A stretch of 53,319 bases of DNA from a virus. Its lineage: Duplodnaviria > Caudoviricetes. Made by a program: the position numbers and the translations under genes. The stretch covers positions 1 to 53,319 of the IMG/VR virus record IMGVR_UViG_3300030106_001611. One strand, written 5' to 3'. Below the pieces are notes generated by a model that was given only the letters and a program-made list of their open reading frames with translations, did not search any database and had not been told where the DNA came from. Each line of letters begins with the position of its first letter. Position 1 is the first letter of the stretch. This document shows positions 13,243 to 22,997 of this stretch, piece after piece.

Positions 13243-13276
13243 TCACGAAGCTGTGATAAAGGAATCTAATGGCTGA
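13046..13276 (+). CDS. Small helical protein overlapping the portal 3' end
   Basis: AAAGGA RBS; ELRQLQGKAALLETLL resembles post-portal proteins of podoviruses. Confidence 0.65.
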   Translation: MYSKEQATLVGPLLAQPKIWQGLEEYLLVLKEQTYRGLVTAQSESELRQLQGKAALLETLLKLKDNHEAVIKESNG

Positions 13277-15227
13277 CCGCGTATTACTTCAACTATTTGA
13301 ACAACCTGATGACTTTATAGGTGTTTCTCAAACGGCTCTGGACCGTGCAGAGTATTCCAGTAGGAATGTCAACTTCTTTAATTCGTTTTTTGGTTTAGGA
13401 GGTCTGGGAGAAACGGGTGTAGGCGTAGATAGAAAAGAGTATAAAGCTGCAACGGGTCCTGACATTACGACAGTTGGGATTCAAGATGACAAAGACGTAG
13501 ATGGGGTAGACTTAACTGAAGGAAGTTTCGAATCGGCTTTTCCCGGACAAACTATGGACGACATATCCTATGATTACTCCGGCGGCACTACTACATATAA
13601 CAGTTACTCCGATGCTCTAAAAGGAATAAATGTAGCAACAGACCGTGTTCCTATGGTGGAAAATCTGTTTGAACCCATGCTAACAAAAGATAGATTTGGT
13701 GCTCGTAATTTTAAGGATGTAGATATTGGTGCTGCTTTGTTCGGAGAATACGAACGGGCTGAAACCTTTGTAGAAGAAGCCCCCGGTAAAATTGGCGACA
13801 TATTTAAAAAGGGCCTTACAGACCCCCAGAAAAGGTCAGCAATAAGTGCTGCTGCACAGAATCTTACTAAAGGTGCCCCGATGATGGGTTTAATGATGGG
13901 GGCTGCTATTGACGGAAAAACCGTACAGAACGCATTTGGTAATGCTAGCTGGCGACCTAATGGTATTCTTGGGGTAGCAGCAGACTTAAATCACACAGTC
14001 CAGTTTAATGATATGGCTAACATTAGAGCGGCTCATGCTTCTAATGCGGCGCTTCAAAAATCTTTTGACACAGGCACTCTTTCTGATGAATTAACGACTG
14101 GCAGGATGATGGGTTTACAATCTTTTGCTCCCACCGGATTTGCTATGGAATTTAATACCGGATTTGGAGTTACTCGTAGTCCCGGTTCAGTGCACTACAA
14201 CGGTAACACTATGGGTATGTCCCGTAGCCAGCTTGAAGCATTTGACGCTCTTTCAAAGGGCATGGTTCCAAAAGGATATGACCCAGTATCAGAAAAAGGA
14301 ACCACAATTAACCAAGCAGGATGGTTAGCTACAGGAAATACAGGTCAAGATGGCAAGCCGGGTAAAGGTACAGGGTTCTACACCGACAAAGGAATGTTTT
14401 ATAGCCCTACCACAAATACCTATTCAAGATATGGTCTGGCGGAAAGCATCACTGCCGCAGCAGCTAAAGCAGGCATTACTGTTGATGAATATAGAAGTGC
14501 ACTAACGGATGCTCGTAAGGGAAAAGGTAAGCTGTCTAATCTTGTTAATGATATAAGGCAGACTAACCTTAACGCTGCAGAAGCTGCTAGAAAAGATGAA
14601 GCCGCAAAAGCAGCGGCGTATGCAGCAGAAATTGCAAAAATGGAAGCAGCGATTGCAGCAGGCGGTGGAAAAGACACCAGTCCCGGTGATGATGACTTTG
14701 ACACTAGAACAGGTGCAGAAGCTGTTGCTGCTGGAGGCGGTCCTGATAGAACAAGTGGTGGTATAGATTCACCTTACAGAAAGGGAGGGCGTGTTGGCTA
14801 CGCACTGGGAACTCCCCCACCGGGTGTTCAGGCACAGCAGAGCGGTTTTATTGATGCCCCACCCTCCCAAGTCTCCGAAGCTGGCAAAGTTGCTGATGAC
14901 CGCCCCTTGGATGTACCAGAAGGTACTTACATACTTAATGCGGCTGCTGTCGAGTTCGCAGGGGAGACAGACATTCGTAATATGATACTGGAGGCTCAGA
15001 AAGAAGCGGTTCGCAGAGGTATAGCACAGGGAGACGTTGCCCGTAGTTCTGAAATGGTGGACATAGCTGTATCCCGTGGTGAAGTAAAAATTGCTCCTTA
15101 TTTAGTGCCTATTATTGGCGAAGACCGCCTAGAGAAGATTAATAAAAGAGGATTACGTAAAACCGAACAGCGAATTGCAGCGACGCAACAGGAACCTGTA
15201 GCTGCACGACGCGGCGGTTTTATATAG
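13269..15227 (+). CDS. Putative virion/internal protein (652 aa)
   Basis: G/A-rich; C-terminal duplicated DxxPxxxxEGxYILNAAAV-type motif resembling tape-measure-like proteins. Confidence 0.6.
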   Translation: MADRVLLQLFEQPDDFIGVSQTALDRAEYSSRNVNFFNSFFGLGGLGETGVGVDRKEYKAATGPDITTVGIQDDKDVDGVDLTEGSFESAFPGQTMDDISYDYSGGTTTYNSYSDALKGINVATDRVPMVENLFEPMLTKDRFGARNFKDVDIGAALFGEYERAETFVEEAPGKIGDIFKKGLTDPQKRSAISAAAQNLTKGAPMMGLMMGAAIDGKTVQNAFGNASWRPNGILGVAADLNHTVQFNDMANIRAAHASNAALQKSFDTGTLSDELTTGRMMGLQSFAPTGFAMEFNTGFGVTRSPGSVHYNGNTMGMSRSQLEAFDALSKGMVPKGYDPVSEKGTTINQAGWLATGNTGQDGKPGKGTGFYTDKGMFYSPTTNTYSRYGLAESITAAAAKAGITVDEYRSALTDARKGKGKLSNLVNDIRQTNLNAAEAARKDEAAKAAAYAAEIAKMEAAIAAGGGKDTSPGDDDFDTRTGAEAVAAGGGPDRTSGGIDSPYRKGGRVGYALGTPPPGVQAQQSGFIDAPPSQVSEAGKVADDRPLDVPEGTYILNAAAVEFAGETDIRNMILEAQKEAVRRGIAQGDVARSSEMVDIAVSRGEVKIAPYLVPIIGEDRLEKINKRGLRKTEQRIAATQQEPVAARRGGFI

Positions 15228-15231
15228 AATC

Positions 15232-15298
15232 GCTGGCTACCCACGAACCCGTGGCCCCAGCACAACCGACGCGGCTACCCACAGCCATGTGGCACCGC
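15232..15298 (+). promoter_or_regulatory. Tandem structured RNA leader of the scaffold gene
   Basis: Two hairpins sharing GG-CUAC-CCAC...GUGG-C(C/A)-CC. Confidence 0.65.
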
Positions 15299-15315
15299 AA
15301 GTGAGGTAAATACCA

Positions 15316-16218
15316 ATGGCAAAAGCAAGAGGCCACCGTGCCAACAAAGTAAATGACTCTTTCGGAACAATCAATAATCACGCTCTCTACAAGGGAAAAT
15401 ACAGAGACGAAGTTTACAAAGATGAGGATGAAGAGTCAAACGTGGAAGCCCAAGACGCTGACCCCGTAGAAGAAACGGCTACTCAGCAAGAAGAACAGGG
15501 AAGTAGTTTCGTAGAGGCCAAGAAGGAATCTAACGAAGACCACGACTATAAGAAACGGTATGACGACTTGAAACGTCATTACGATTCTAAGGTAGACGAG
15601 TTCAAATCTGAAATCGAAAGCCTACGTAAAACAATGACAGACCGTGCAGTGGAGATGCCGCGAGGCGTAACCCCGCCACGAACACAAGAGGAACTAGATG
15701 AGTTCAAAGAACGTTATCCAGATGTCTTCGAAGTTGTTCAGACGGTTTCAAGTATGCAGACTGAATCTCAGGTTGCAAAACTACGTGAAGAACTTGGTAC
15801 TATTCAAGAACGGGAAAAGGAACTAGAAAAGCAGAAAGCATACGAACAACTGCTTCGCGCCCACCCTGACTTCTCTGAATTAAAGACCGATGAAAAGTTC
15901 CTATCATGGCTAGAAGAACAACCATCGTCCATTGCGGATGGTATTTATAAAAACAATACCGATGCAAAATGGGCGGCACGGGTCATAGACCTCTACAAAG
16001 CCGACACAGGCTTAACCAAAAAGAAGAAAACCAAAGACTCTTCAGCAGCAGATGCAGTTACTAAAAGTCCTGCAAGGGATGTAAAAACAGACGCTACTGA
16101 TGGAAAAAGGATTTGGAAATCTTCTGAAATTGCCCGGCTCAAGCCGTGGGAGTTCGAAAAGCTAGAAGCTGAACTCGACCAAGCACGGACTGAAGGGCGA
16201 ATCGACTTACAATCCTAA
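15316..16218 (+). CDS. Capsid scaffolding protein
   Basis: Acidic coiled coil, YKKRYDDLKRHYD; directly upstream of the capsid gene. Confidence 0.8.
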   Translation: MAKARGHRANKVNDSFGTINNHALYKGKYRDEVYKDEDEESNVEAQDADPVEETATQQEEQGSSFVEAKKESNEDHDYKKRYDDLKRHYDSKVDEFKSEIESLRKTMTDRAVEMPRGVTPPRTQEELDEFKERYPDVFEVVQTVSSMQTESQVAKLREELGTIQEREKELEKQKAYEQLLRAHPDFSELKTDEKFLSWLEEQPSSIADGIYKNNTDAKWAARVIDLYKADTGLTKKKKTKDSSAADAVTKSPARDVKTDATDGKRIWKSSEIARLKPWEFEKLEAELDQARTEGRIDLQS

Positions 16219-16245
16219 AACCTCAAACAGAGAAGGAATCGAACA

Positions 16246-17235
16246 ATGGCTTTCGGTACTGCTGCGGGTTATGGTAACCTGCCTTCCGGTAATTTTGCAC
16301 CGGAAATCTTTAGCCAAAAAGTTCTCAAATTCTTTCGTCGCGCTTCGGTTGTTGAAGACATTACGAACACTGACTATGCTGGCGAGATTGAGAACTTTGG
16401 CGATACGGTTCGTATCATAAAAGAACCTACCGTAACAGTTGCCTCGTACACACGAGGTTCTGTAGTGAACCCACAAGACTTGGCTGACGACCAAATTACA
16501 ATGACCGTTGACCAAGCTAATGCGTTCGCGTTCAAAATCGACGACATTGAAGAGCGTCATTCGCACGTAAACTTCGAGGCACTTGCCACCTCTTCGGGTG
16601 CATTTGCTCTGAAGCGTAAGTACGATAAGACTGTTCTTCAGGCTATGTCTGATGGTGCTGGTATTGCAGCTTCTGCTGTAACTGGCACAACTCTGACCAC
16701 GACTGCTGCTGCTGGTACTCTTGGTACTGCAAACGCACCTATCAACATTGAGACAGATGATAACGGCATCAACCTGATGCTTGCAATGGCCCGTCTCCTT
16801 GATGATGAGTCTGTGCCAGAAGAGAACCGCTGGTTTGTTGCACCTCCAATTTTCTACGAGAAGTGTTTCCAAGCCGGAAATAAAATTGCTGAAGTACAGG
16901 TTACTGGTGACGGTACATCTCCACTTCGCAATGGTCTTGCAACTGTTGGCACACTTGCTGGCTTCCGTTGCTACAAGTCAACTGCGCTTAACAGCACAGG
17001 CGGCACAGACCAAGTGACTTTGACTGACGCATCTGCAACTCTCGCAACCGACGGTTCTGAGAACATTGTTCTTGCTGGTCACATGTCATCCACCTCTACT
17101 GCTTCGCACATTGCGAAAACAGAAGTGGTTCGTTCAACTGAATCGTTCTCCGACGTTATTCGTGGACTGCATGTTTTTGGGCAAAAAGTATTACGCCAAG
17201 AAGCAATCGTTCGCGGCGTTGTAGACTTTGCGTAA
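16246..17235 (+). CDS. Major capsid protein
   Basis: NFAPEIFSQKVL...ITNTDYAGEI..FGDTVRI...RGLHVFG. Confidence 0.9.
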   Translation: MAFGTAAGYGNLPSGNFAPEIFSQKVLKFFRRASVVEDITNTDYAGEIENFGDTVRIIKEPTVTVASYTRGSVVNPQDLADDQITMTVDQANAFAFKIDDIEERHSHVNFEALATSSGAFALKRKYDKTVLQAMSDGAGIAASAVTGTTLTTTAAAGTLGTANAPINIETDDNGINLMLAMARLLDDESVPEENRWFVAPPIFYEKCFQAGNKIAEVQVTGDGTSPLRNGLATVGTLAGFRCYKSTALNSTGGTDQVTLTDASATLATDGSENIVLAGHMSSTSTASHIAKTEVVRSTESFSDVIRGLHVFGQKVLRQEAIVRGVVDFA

Positions 17236-17814: not shown

Positions 17815-18450
17815 ATGTTATTACAACTACTATCCGAACAAGAAGTACAATATTGCGTAGAAAACTGGGGCACTAAAGAGGATGGTGCGAAGACACAGCC
17901 TCTGTCAGACAGTGAAGATTTAAAAAAGAACACAGAGTCGCCTGACATGACACCCGAAGTAAGGCAACTCGTATCAACAAGAATATACAGCAACCCTTAC
18001 ATAGACTCAGTAGTTTGTCCAAACAAAGTATCGGTAAACTTTTACAATGAGTATGAAGAGGGGGGCTTCTACAAAAAGCATATAGATACGTTTCGTGCCG
18101 CACCTAGAAGCAACAACGTCTACTTTGATTACGGGTTTTCATTAGGTCTTAGTGACGATTACGAGGGTGGGGAGTTTGTTCTAAATAACGATGTGGGTGA
18201 AATAAACTACACAATTGGAAAGGGACAACTACTTATATTCCCGATTATATACCCTCACGGGGTAAAGCCGATAACAAAAGGTTCGCGTAAAGCAATCATA
18301 GGTTGGATGTCAAGCAACGTTTCTTACGAACAAAGCTACATACTAAAGAACTTGTTTGAAATAAACGCAAGCTTTTTAAAAGAAGAAAACCCGATGGCTC
18401 TCAAGTCAACATTGGTACAAAATTATTTAGCTAAACATTGGGGTAAATAA
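17815..18450 (+). CDS. 2OG-Fe(II) oxygenase, PKHD/PiuC-like
   Basis: HID, DYEGGEF, PHGVKPITKGSR. Confidence 0.85.
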   Translation: MLLQLLSEQEVQYCVENWGTKEDGAKTQPLSDSEDLKKNTESPDMTPEVRQLVSTRIYSNPYIDSVVCPNKVSVNFYNEYEEGGFYKKHIDTFRAAPRSNNVYFDYGFSLGLSDDYEGGEFVLNNDVGEINYTIGKGQLLIFPIIYPHGVKPITKGSRKAIIGWMSSNVSYEQSYILKNLFEINASFLKEENPMALKSTLVQNYLAKHWGK

Positions 18451-18629
18451 TGGCACCTAGAAAAAAAGCTACACCAAAAAAGAAATCAAAAAGCCCTACG
18501 CCAAAAAACAAGGCACTTTACGCACGAGTAAAGGCAGAGGCTAAACGTAAGTTTGACGTGTACCCAAGCGCATATGCAAATGCTTGGCTAGTTAAAACCT
18601 ACAAGAAACGTGGCGGGACGTATGCCTAA
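18450..18629 (+). CDS. 59-aa basic protein, DUF5872-like (not in the ORF track)
   Basis: TAATG coupling on both sides; NKALYARVKAEAKRKFDVYPSAYANAW...YKKRGG. Confidence 0.8.
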   Translation: MAPRKKATPKKKSKSPTPKNKALYARVKAEAKRKFDVYPSAYANAWLVKTYKKRGGTYA

Positions 18630-18883
18630 TGGCTAAACCAAAAGGTGGCTTAACTAAATGGTTCAAGGAAGATTGGCGGGATGTAAAGACTGGCAAGAAA
18701 TGCGGTCGCTCTGGTTCAGAGAAAAAGAAACGTCCTTATCCGGCCTGTAGACCCGCTAAAGTTGCTGGACGTATAAGTAAGAAAGAAGCGGCTAAAAAAA
18801 CAGGACCGCGCAAAGTAAAATGGTCTGTCACTGCTTCAGGAAGAAAAAGAAGTAGTGGACGAAAGTCAAAATCCAAGGCATAA
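18629..18883 (+). CDS. Basic protein, DUF5872-like
   Basis: GLTKWFKEDW...CGRS...YPACRP. Confidence 0.75.
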   Translation: MAKPKGGLTKWFKEDWRDVKTGKKCGRSGSEKKKRPYPACRPAKVAGRISKKEAAKKTGPRKVKWSVTASGRKRSSGRKSKSKA

Positions 18884-21723: not shown

Positions 21724-21915
21724 ATGGCTTTATCATCAAAAATACTACTGTTTTGCATAGTGCTTGGTGATTCGCCTGATAGGTGGGACATGGAAGCAGA
21801 GGTTGTTCAAGAACACGAGTGGATGTCAAGTTGCCATGTAGCAATAACTGAGAACGGGTTCAAAAACCCTAATGATGTTTGTTTTTGTGTTGAAACAGAA
21901 AGTATTAGACGCTAA
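21724..21915 (+). CDS. Small Cys-containing protein
   Basis: Hydrophobic N-terminus; WMSSC...CFC. Confidence 0.55.
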   Translation: MALSSKILLFCIVLGDSPDRWDMEAEVVQEHEWMSSCHVAITENGFKNPNDVCFCVETESIRR

Positions 21916-22997
21916 TGCCACCACGCAATCATAAAGACTGGATTAAGAAACCTAAAGTTGAACATGTTAACTCTTTAATTTATTCTGATTACGGTCTGTA
22001 CGTGCAAGAGTTAGAGAATATCTTTTCTAAAGTTTGGGTGCCTATGTGTCACATCAGTGAGATGCGAAACAAGGGAGACTTTAGAACAACACGCATTGCA
22101 GACAAAAGAGTTATTGCAATCAACATTGATGGTGAACATGTTCAAGCTTATTATAATACTAACGATATTGACCATCGTAAACCTGCTGGAACTATTACCT
22201 ATGATTTTGCTACCGTAGAAAAACCCTTACATTGTGAAGTAAAACATGGCGGTATGGTCTGGGTAACACTAGACCCTAATCCAACGCAGAGTGTAGAAGA
22301 GTGGACGTGCGGCGCATTTGATTGCATTGCAGATGCCATTGACGCAGAAGAACTGGAAGTATTTCACTATCACAAAGCTGTCATAGACACAAACTACAAA
22401 TTATGGCACGATACTAATTCAGAGTTCTATCACGACTTTATGCACTACTTTAATCGTGTTTCAGGATTTAATGATGAGTATTTCGCTAGAAAGAATATTC
22501 CTTTTGATAATGGTCATGTTAACGTCAGCAGCTTCACTGTTAACTATGAAGAGTATGACGGATTTGAAGATAGGGGGGAGTTATCTTTTCCCAATCTGCC
22601 GCCCAACCAGTGGTACATGGTTGACTTATTCCCCGGTTACAACTTTAACCTACGTGGCAGTGCCTATCGCAGTGACAGTGTAACACCACTAGGACCAAAC
22701 AAAGTATTGATTGAGTTCCGTGGTTACGGTTTGCGTAGGGACACAGAAGAAGAAAGACAGACTCGTATCAAGCATCATAACTCCATATGGGGTCCGTTCG
22801 GTCGCAACCTGCACGAAGACCTGATTGGTGTCACAGGCCAAGGTACAACAATGCGAGAGGGTACCGAACCGCGAAACATTTTACACGGACGACACGAAAA
22901 CAGTACAATCCACGATGAAGTAGGTATGCGTCACTACTACAACGAGTGGTCTGAGTGGATGCAGGTAGATGCAAGCAATCCAAAAATAGCGGCTTAA
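21915..22997 (+). CDS. msmA: Ring-hydroxylating oxygenase alpha subunit, methanesulfonate monooxygenase (MsmA)-like, lacking Rieske ligands
   Basis: ELENIFSKVW..MCH.SE...GDF, NYKLWHDTNSEFYHDFMH, LFP, NLHED; no CxH...CxxH. Confidence 0.75.
   Translation: MPPRNHKDWIKKPKVEHVNSLIYSDYGLYVQELENIFSKVWVPMCHISEMRNKGDFRTTRIADKRVIAINIDGEHVQAYYNTNDIDHRKPAGTITYDFATVEKPLHCEVKHGGMVWVTLDPNPTQSVEEWTCGAFDCIADAIDAEELEVFHYHKAVIDTNYKLWHDTNSEFYHDFMHYFNRVSGFNDEYFARKNIPFDNGHVNVSSFTVNYEEYDGFEDRGELSFPNLPPNQWYMVDLFPGYNFNLRGSAYRSDSVTPLGPNKVLIEFRGYGLRRDTEEERQTRIKHHNSIWGPFGRNLHEDLIGVTGQGTTMREGTEPRNILHGRHENSTIHDEVGMRHYYNEWSEWMQVDASNPKIAA

Follow-up and report, generated by a model that had tools for sequence, protein, structure and literature searches.

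We analysed a 53,319-base stretch of DNA (IMG/VR record IMGVR_UViG_3300030106_001611; the whole stretch is hereafter called the window), the complete virus record of an HMO-2011-type marine podovirus with Puniceispirillum phage HMO-2011 and Roseobacter phage CRP-212 as its nearest named relatives, and focused on a small internal-loop RNA module that occurs three times around the start of a scaffold-like gene. This gene (15316..16218, plus strand, ATG at 15316) encodes 300 amino acids and belongs to a plus-strand structural block made up of the large terminase, the portal, a 652-amino-acid gene, the scaffold-like gene, the major capsid gene, and adaptor and tail genes. The 652-amino-acid gene (13269..15227, plus strand) matched no family and its function is unassigned. 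It is separated from the scaffold-like gene by 88 nucleotides (nt), and this spacer contains hairpins 1 and 2 of the element, followed by the ribosome-binding site TGAGGT (15302-15307, plus strand). The major capsid protein gene (16246..17235, plus strand; phrog_267, E value 2.7e-60; PF19821) starts 27 nt past the scaffold stop codon and probably shares an mRNA with the scaffold-like gene.

All three hairpins are on the plus strand. Hairpin 1 (15232..15261), which begins 4 nt after the stop codon of the upstream gene, has a 5-base-pair (bp) outer stem, an unpaired CUAC (15237-15240), a 5-bp inner stem, a variable apical loop and an unpaired CC on the 3' strand (15255-15256). After a 9-nt linker (15262..15270), hairpin 2 (15271..15298) has a 4-bp outer stem, CUAC (15275-15278), a 5-bp inner stem, the apical loop GCCA (15284-15287) and CA on the 3' strand (15293-15294). 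It ends 3 nt 5' of TGAGGT, so that the GAGG (15303-15306) lies 4 nt past its base and 9 nt 5' of the ATG. Hairpin 3 (15457..15487) lies inside the reading frame, in codons 48-58, and carries the module inverted, with CC on the 5' strand (15462-15463) and CUAC on the 3' strand (15479-15482). The three hairpins of the initial annotation were found exactly where it had placed them, and its description of an asymmetric four-by-two (4x2) loop in three copies, the third inverted, was backed by the covariation and by the re-use of the module in other clades described below.

Folded alone, each hairpin adopted the proposed structure both as its minimum-energy and as its centroid fold. The energies were -13.6 kcal/mol for hairpin 1 (z score -3.88; 1 of 200 shuffles equal or better), -11.2 kcal/mol for hairpin 2 (z -1.60; 15 of 200) and -8.5 kcal/mol for hairpin 3 (z -2.21; 6 of 200), and the fold of the whole leader had a z score of -1.67 (11 of 200). 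The 10-mer common to hairpins 1 and 2 occurred in exactly two copies in the 53-kb window, both at these hairpins; a motif search allowing mismatches returned 28 matches in the window versus 30 expected and was uninformative beyond the two exact copies.

Conservation of the element in the clade of the window

A scan of IMG/VR with the scaffold protein returned 527 relatives, the best 80 of which (69-91% identity) were taken. Both leader hairpins were present in 79 of these 80 loci, the exception having just 19 nt of upstream sequence. Window and relatives together gave 49 distinct leaders, 47 of which were aligned after exclusion of two truncated ones. Within this alignment, 99.0% of the 799 cells of the structure described above were paired, and 8 of the 17 pairs had changed on both sides (99 cells). 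None of 500 column shuffles reached the covariation score, and pairing was only 25-43% in a control in which the partners were slid by 1-3 columns. RNAalifold, unprompted, returned the same 17 pairs. The outer-stem pairs 16/44, 17/43 and 18/42 of hairpin 1 showed a two-sided switch of pair type in 19-21 of the 47 leaders and the inner stem in 12, and pair 64/77 of hairpin 2 was U-A in 27 leaders and C-G in 20.

The unpaired positions behaved differently from one another. The CUAC and CC columns were invariant in all 47 leaders except for the window's own CA, which is due to an A at 15294 that is private to the window; the other 46 leaders had CC, and C was also found at 15294 in RNA-library contigs of relatives. 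(The single module of the SAR11 phage HTVC033P likewise has CA.) The apical loop of hairpin 2 (15284-15287) did not vary in any of the 47 leaders, and that of hairpin 1 varied in sequence and length, with length steps that were not multiples of three. The core AACCG of the linker (15264-15268), for which no obvious pairing partner was seen, was also invariant in all 47.

Homology among the relatives started abruptly about 8 nt 5' of hairpin 1, and the 47 leaders were preceded by 40 distinct 45-nt flanks. Since homology starts here despite the unrelated flanks, the leader moves together with the scaffold gene and belongs with it. The upstream mosaic (about 15150-15231 in the window and the same region in the relatives, L001-L080) takes in the C-terminal end of the 652-amino-acid gene and exists in many unrelated versions, several of which bear a small hairpin of their own.

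The hairpin inside the reading frame was conserved in a similar manner, all three hairpins being retained with compensatory changes in 79 of the 80 relatives. Among 30 distinct sequences, 94.5% of the hairpin 3 cells were paired and 5 of the 9 pairs were compensatory; the covariation score was reached by 0 of 500 shuffles and the slid controls paired at 16-41%. In a codon-aware alignment, one switch in the outer stem corresponded to a synonymous Ala codon change together with a Gln-to-Pro replacement, the inner stem occurred in five different forms, and the length of the cap followed amino-acid insertions and deletions. Pairing was thus kept through an amino-acid change, and RNA pairing is under selection within the reading frame. 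The covariation check that had been suggested along with the initial annotation therefore turned up compensatory changes in the leader and in hairpin 3 alike.

G-U pairs were frequent in these structures (one closing pair, for example, was U-G in 40 of 64 distinct sequences of the HMO-2011 clade), and as these would be mismatches on the other strand, they assign the structure to the sense RNA. We also considered that the element might act as DNA, i.e., as an inverted repeat bound by protein, as a promoter element or as a hairpin in single-stranded DNA, given that both strands are able to fold. However, sequence-specific DNA sites conserve sequence and not pairing, and here the stems covaried, loop lengths changed, the G-U pairs would become A-C mismatches on the opposite strand, the position was tied to the ribosome-binding site, and the copy in the coding region was kept at an amino-acid cost. 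A role at the DNA level is therefore extremely unlikely, and we are close to certain that the RNA structure is real and functional.

The module in other clades and cultured phages

Counting the 527 relatives of the window, at least 588 members in the HMO-2011 clade, 11 in the CRP-212 clade and 31 in a fourth clade, the scaffold family was encoded in more than 1,100 IMG/VR stretches. The scaffolds of the other clades are only about 30% identical to that of the window. The leaders of the HMO-2011 and CRP-212 clades formed one long hairpin with two modules head to head, in the order outer helix, CUAC, middle helix, CC, inner hairpin, CUAC, middle helix, CC, outer helix and ribosome-binding site. 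The two strands of this nested hairpin read alike, which makes it a pseudo-twofold site. Among 47 distinct leaders of the HMO-2011 clade, 34 could be parsed perfectly into this structure, 11 had one mismatch in a middle helix and 2 were aberrant. On a plain MAFFT alignment, 91.4% of the cells of the nested structure were paired and 6 pairs were compensatory; 0 of 500 shuffles reached the covariation score, but 53 of 500 reached the count of compensatory pairs. When 64 distinct sequences were aligned by fitting them to the model, a procedure biased in the model's favour, 92.6% of the cells were paired and 10 of 16 pairs were compensatory. Model R3 matched 79 of 80 loci of the HMO-2011 clade (the exception lacking upstream sequence), 9 of 11 loci of the CRP-212 clade and the window, each time with a single match at the scaffold leader.

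In the fourth clade, leaders carried a single module in which the second loop base was U, C, A or G, apart from one subgroup with a nested two-module hairpin and a clear promoter about 35 nt upstream. In the latter (L312 1240-1350 and L313 1040-1150), a TATAAT box with a matching -35 box is followed by a 5'-terminal hairpin, which differs from the element, and then by the nested element. The position of this promoter places the element in a primary 5' untranslated region (UTR) in this distantly related subgroup. One further locus (L175) had two modules, of which one lay in the leader and the other within the coding region.

By tblastn, the scaffold family was found in 27 phage records, 12 leaders of which were inspected. 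The module was recognised by eye in 11 of these 12: in the SAR11 phages HTVC033P (single) and HTVC103P (tandem), the Roseobacter phages CRP-1, -2, -3, -9, -603 and -738, Sinorhizobium phage phiM6 (nested), Vibrio phage CHOED and an Aeromonas phage; in Pseudoalteromonas phage Slicky01, which has a 25-nt spacer, it was absent by eye. Module model R1 gave matches at E ≤1 in 7 of the 12 leaders, each just upstream of the gene. With the isolates included, the tandem form was seen in the window's clade and HTVC103P, the nested head-to-head form in HMO-2011, the CRP-212 clade, CRP-1, phiM6 and L312, and the single-unit form in L294, L302, CRP-2, CRP-9 and HTVC033P.

Across these forms, the helices changed freely around a nearly fixed loop. 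In the AT-rich pelagiphages the helices were rich in A-U pairs and the loop bases unchanged; an A occupied the first loop position in CRP-738, CHOED and the Aeromonas phage. Only the first two positions of the 4-nt strand varied across clades, giving a family-wide consensus of N-N-A-C opposite two bases, mostly CC. In every clade, the 3' base of the element was 0-7 nt from the ribosome-binding site or overlapped it. In HTVC103P (L321 430-539) and CHOED (L326 500-593), the 3' strand of the last module's outer helix overlaps the ribosome-binding site, and folding alone could mask the site in these two phages. The hosts of isolates with the scaffold family include SAR11, SAR116, Roseobacter, Sinorhizobium, Vibrio and Aeromonas, a breadth that favours either a phage-borne partner for the element or a universal host one.

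The surrounding genes differed between clades as well. In HMO-2011 (L083 3255-3496) and CRP-212 (L084 3252-3505), a near-consensus sigma-70 promoter dedicated to the coat gene is followed by a 5' UTR of about 200 nt, as opposed to the 27-nt gap in the window, so that the scaffold and coat expression units are organised differently between these clades. The replication block lies on the minus strand of the window, which lacks an RNA polymerase gene as judged from annotation of its open reading frames (ORFs) and from family searches. Within the structural block are two auxiliary-looking genes (17815-18450 and 21915-22997), for a 2OG-Fe(II) oxygenase and a protein with a ring-hydroxylating oxygenase alpha-subunit catalytic domain. 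Two adjacent, strongly basic ORFs of 59 and 84 amino acids (18450-18629 and 18629-18883) each match one half of DUF5872 and appear to be a single family, of unknown function, in split or two-gene form.

Possible functions of the element

With model R1, which was partly built from them, and with filters off, hairpins 1 and 2 scored 46.1 and 38.1 bits in a search of the whole window, and the next best match scored 12.3 bits (E 0.37). In five near-complete relatives R1 matched the scaffold leader only, a CRP-212-like record being without any match, so that across six near-complete genomes no module was found by R1 at any other gene, including other highly expressed late genes. A loose structural descriptor gave 44 matches over the window compared to 40.8 +/- 7.6 in shuffled sequence, i.e., background. 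A pattern for the tandem leader gave 107 matches in 185,579 prokaryote genomes; none of the 80 examined fitted model R2, indicating chance matches, and no prophage copy was seen among them. No Rfam 15 family matched the window at gathering thresholds, and relaxing the search to E up to 10 over 15150-15550 gave only IMES-1 (15.6 bits, where 81 are needed) and the hairpin ribozyme (15.2 bits, where 65 are needed), neither of them on the hairpins. The novelty of the motif, which a database match would have removed according to the initial annotation, was thus upheld for Rfam 15.

Known classes of structured RNA were compared with the element. A scan of 14900-16400 for intrinsic terminators showed no terminator-like site at hairpins 1-3; the sole plus-strand site was weak and lay upstream of the element (15201-15215), and the sequence 3' of hairpins 1 and 2 is A/C-rich or purine-rich. 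In T7-type RNase III sites, double-stranded RNA extends over about two helical turns and is broken by an internal loop. The window hairpins were rejected as such sites, having just 9-10 bp each; the nested form in other clades has about 16 pairs. The guanidine-II (mini-ykkC) riboswitch has two hairpins whose conserved apical tetraloops pair with each other upon ligand binding, and the presence of two small, similar hairpins just 5' of the ribosome-binding site is the sole point that would speak for a small-molecule or ion sensor of this tandem style. The apical loop of hairpin 1 varies and conservation sits in the internal loops, copies may be nested, single or in the coding region, no Rfam family was found even at E up to 10, and we see no metabolic logic for ligand sensing at a scaffold gene. 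The guanidine-II class was rejected, and we consider a sensor of this kind highly improbable.

We then asked how the message that carries the element might arise. No sigma-70-like promoter was found on the plus strand upstream of hairpin 1 in a scan of the window, and no conserved -35 box in the upstream flanks of the relatives. Part of the region was included in 24 RNA runs from 14 studies, with a best share of 0.37; contigs only were available and four runs were examined. Contigs of one RNA study began at 15249, 15250 and 15264, contigs of relatives in a second study reached 31 and 49 nt further 5', and 13400-15248 was without contig cover in the runs examined; such contigs are uninformative about transcript ends, strand and level, and they may include DNA carry-over. 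A stabiliser hairpin of the ompA type would have to lie within a few nucleotides of the 5' end of the mRNA, a place that is taken by a different hairpin in L312 and L313.

These observations bear on the possibility that the element is a binding or processing signal for some other factor (a host RNase, an RNA chaperone, the capsid or the portal) and mainly sets the fate of the mRNA. For example, an upstream polycistronic RNA could be cut immediately before hairpin 1, leaving a structured 5' end that would stabilise the scaffold-capsid message. Outside the element, only a short A/U-rich stretch adjoining hairpin 1 on its 5' side is conserved, the lack of a sigma-70-like promoter upstream on the plus strand makes a processed 5' end plausible in the window, the promoter and separate 5'-terminal hairpin of L312 and L313 place the element in a 5' UTR, and the host breadth is compatible with a universal host factor. 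However, a plain stabiliser would need neither conserved unpaired bases, extra copies, a coding-region copy nor a fixed distance to the ribosome-binding site, the 9-10 bp hairpins of the window are too short for RNase III by the size requirement given above, and the module is missing from all other genes of the six near-complete genomes, highly expressed late genes included. We therefore hold a role of this kind, and cleavage with stabilisation as part of it, to be possible but rather unlikely.

A protein-free RNA device that tunes translation initiation, as a rigid platform, a standby site or a fold switch, was also considered. The invariant apical loop of hairpin 2 (15284-15287) is complementary to 15317-15320, overlapping the start codon, and a possible pseudoknot between the two would hide the AUG; the overlap between the 3' strand of the outer stem and the ribosome-binding site in HTVC103P and CHOED fits such a device as well. 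On the other hand, loop and start-codon complement never vary and so provide no covariation for or against the pairing, no equivalent complementarity was seen in the HMO-2011 clade, and the retention of six unpaired bases in every arrangement and orientation would be left unexplained. We consider a protein-free device improbable. In the window and its closest relatives, the complementarity to the start-codon region extends to five bases.

Features of autogenous translational operators in general, namely a conserved RNA structure at the ribosome-binding site and conserved unpaired bases in a fixed frame, were both found here. Indeed, the anatomy of the element (specific to one gene, with conserved unpaired bases in a fixed helical frame, in one to three copies and in either orientation) has the look of protein-binding translational operators. 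We therefore favour, with a probability of roughly 0.45, the reading that it serves as a multivalent operator bound by protein, through which scaffold synthesis is controlled post-transcriptionally and probably autogenously. The operator unit would be a two-strand internal loop with four unpaired bases (N-N-A-C, mostly CUAC) facing two (mostly CC), flanked on one side by a helix ending in G-C, G-C and on the other by a second helix of free sequence. In the window, two tandem units would end 4 nt 5' of the ribosome-binding site, with an inverted third unit located 141 nt past the start of the coding region. The loops would be recognised by a protein dimer or oligomer, a type of ligand to which the nested pseudo-twofold and tandem forms are suited. 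The most economical candidate is free scaffold protein that has not been consumed by procapsid assembly, as no gene other than that of the scaffold is a constant companion of the element and the hosts belong to two proteobacterial classes. Occupied units beside the ribosome-binding site might block 30S binding and/or expose the mRNA to decay, and the synthesis of scaffold, and perhaps of capsid, would thus track assembly demand. An operator linked to assembly had already been suggested in the initial annotation, and it fits the multivalency, the unpaired bases that are kept while stems change, the closeness to the ribosome-binding site and the exclusivity to the scaffold gene; protein binding and autoregulation are what we infer from these.

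The name scaffold is itself derived from the position of the gene directly before the major capsid gene, from the prediction of an all-helical, elongated protein and from an acidic, disordered N-terminal part; its size would suit a scaffold as well. The protein matched phrog_13678, of unknown function (E 1.1e-57), and its AlphaFold2 model contained helices only, with a mean predicted local distance difference test score (pLDDT) of 69.7. Invariant blocks are retained in the scaffolds of the clades that are only about 30% identical, and these could hold an RNA-binding surface. A Pfam scan of 62 ORFs of the window gave no recognisable RNA-binding protein.

Several points weigh against the operator reading. 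Any cis-acting role would yield the same gene specificity and linkage. The stability of the hairpins is unremarkable and does not by itself set them apart, and the cell counts given above overstate the number of independent events, as related sequences share ancestry. On the plain alignment of the HMO-2011 clade, RNAalifold did not recover the nested structure and returned a 4-pair invariant hairpin instead, a failure that we attribute to register shifts in the alignment, and in some roseophage leaders (CRP-2, -9 and -603) the outer helix consists of just two G-C pairs. As for the presumed ligand, the scaffold-like protein matched no Pfam family, and its model gave no fold match in the PDB (best E 4.6) and no recognisable RNA-binding fold. 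The idea that a basic N-terminus is the binding part, put forward in the initial annotation, was weakened, because this extension is confined to the window's clade and absent from the HMO-2011 and CRP-212 clades, while the module is family-wide. Finally, in phage P22, the sole precedent for autoregulation of a scaffold, the gap between portal and scaffold genes is 13 nt and no module match was found at the start of gene 8; the best match to the module model in 8 kb of P22 scored 10.3 bits (E 0.21), and the local fold was unremarkable, with a z score of -1.07.

It could also be imagined that the scaffold mRNA is itself part of the assembly machinery, with the modules recruiting scaffold and/or portal to the nascent message and nucleating procapsid initiation coupled to translation. 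We consider this quite a long shot; if true, a proposal mentioned in the introduction of PMC5529062 (citing Bazinet et al. 1990) could be put to the test on a defined RNA.

Were the element an operator, it would provide the first RNA site defined at the molecular level for the control of a scaffold protein in any tailed phage, as well as a compact, portable RNA-protein recognition module whose 4x2 loop is usable in either orientation. HMO-2011-type phages and their relatives are, according to bioRxiv 10.1101/2019.12.14.876532, among the most abundant phage groups in ocean viromes. Cultured systems with the element exist in the CRP roseophages, HMO-2011, pelagiphages and Sinorhizobium phage phiM6. 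The element would provide a handle on how capsid assembly feeds back to gene expression, a question that has been open since the P22 work of the 1980s.

Comparison with known systems

The scaffolding protein gene of P22 is reported, in the work of Casjens and Adams and of Wyckoff and Casjens in 1985, to be autoregulated, free scaffold lowering its own synthesis post-transcriptionally. The likeness to the present case lies in what is probably the same class of gene, beside a P22-type coat gene (annotated as PF11651 in the HMO-2011 record and as 'p22 coat protein' in the CHOED and Aeromonas records) and in the same proposed logic. To our knowledge, no RNA operator has been defined for P22, whereas here an RNA element is defined from sequence and the regulation is proposed. 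The P22 precedent drawn on in the initial annotation therefore holds as functional logic and does not extend to a shared cis element, which P22 lacks.

Parallels in architecture come from elsewhere. The U1A pre-mRNA element and the LicT/SacY RAT hairpin each present two asymmetric internal loops on opposite strands, which bind two copies of a protein. This arrangement resembles the nested form of the HMO-2011, CRP-212 and phiM6 leaders, and the purpose of the U1A element is also autoregulation; loop sequences, proteins, organisms and regulated steps are unrelated, however, and the units of the window lie on separate hairpins. The coat operators of MS2 and PP7 are small hairpins at a translation start with an essential unpaired A, bound by a dimeric structural protein, and they couple assembly to translation. 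As in the reading proposed here, a few unpaired bases at the translation start serve as the recognition site for a structural protein, but MS2 and PP7 use a single hairpin with a one-base bulge and apical contacts, compared to a 4x2 internal loop, free apical loops and one to three copies in the element.

The phage T4 targets of gp32, gp43 and RegA are autogenous translational operators (PMC535899, PMC3014915). The T4 feature that resembles the element is a structured RNA beside the ribosome-binding site that is bound by the gene's own product and limits translation; the T4 cases differ in having a pseudoknot or a simple hairpin, nucleic-acid-binding replication proteins and no repeated internal-loop module.

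We found no description of the element in the literature on HMO-2011, scaffolding proteins, structured RNA and covariation. A related resource is that of Fremin et al. 2023 (PMC10690425), who catalogued 8,495 candidates for structured RNA in the intergenic regions of IMG/VR; it shares the data source and the kind of evidence and includes many unnamed candidates from marine Caudoviricetes directly upstream of genes. Its main text has 0 occurrences of 'scaffold', and the catalogue itself may contain the element. With that proviso, and set beside the systems above, we rate the element as a new RNA family of a known regulatory kind.

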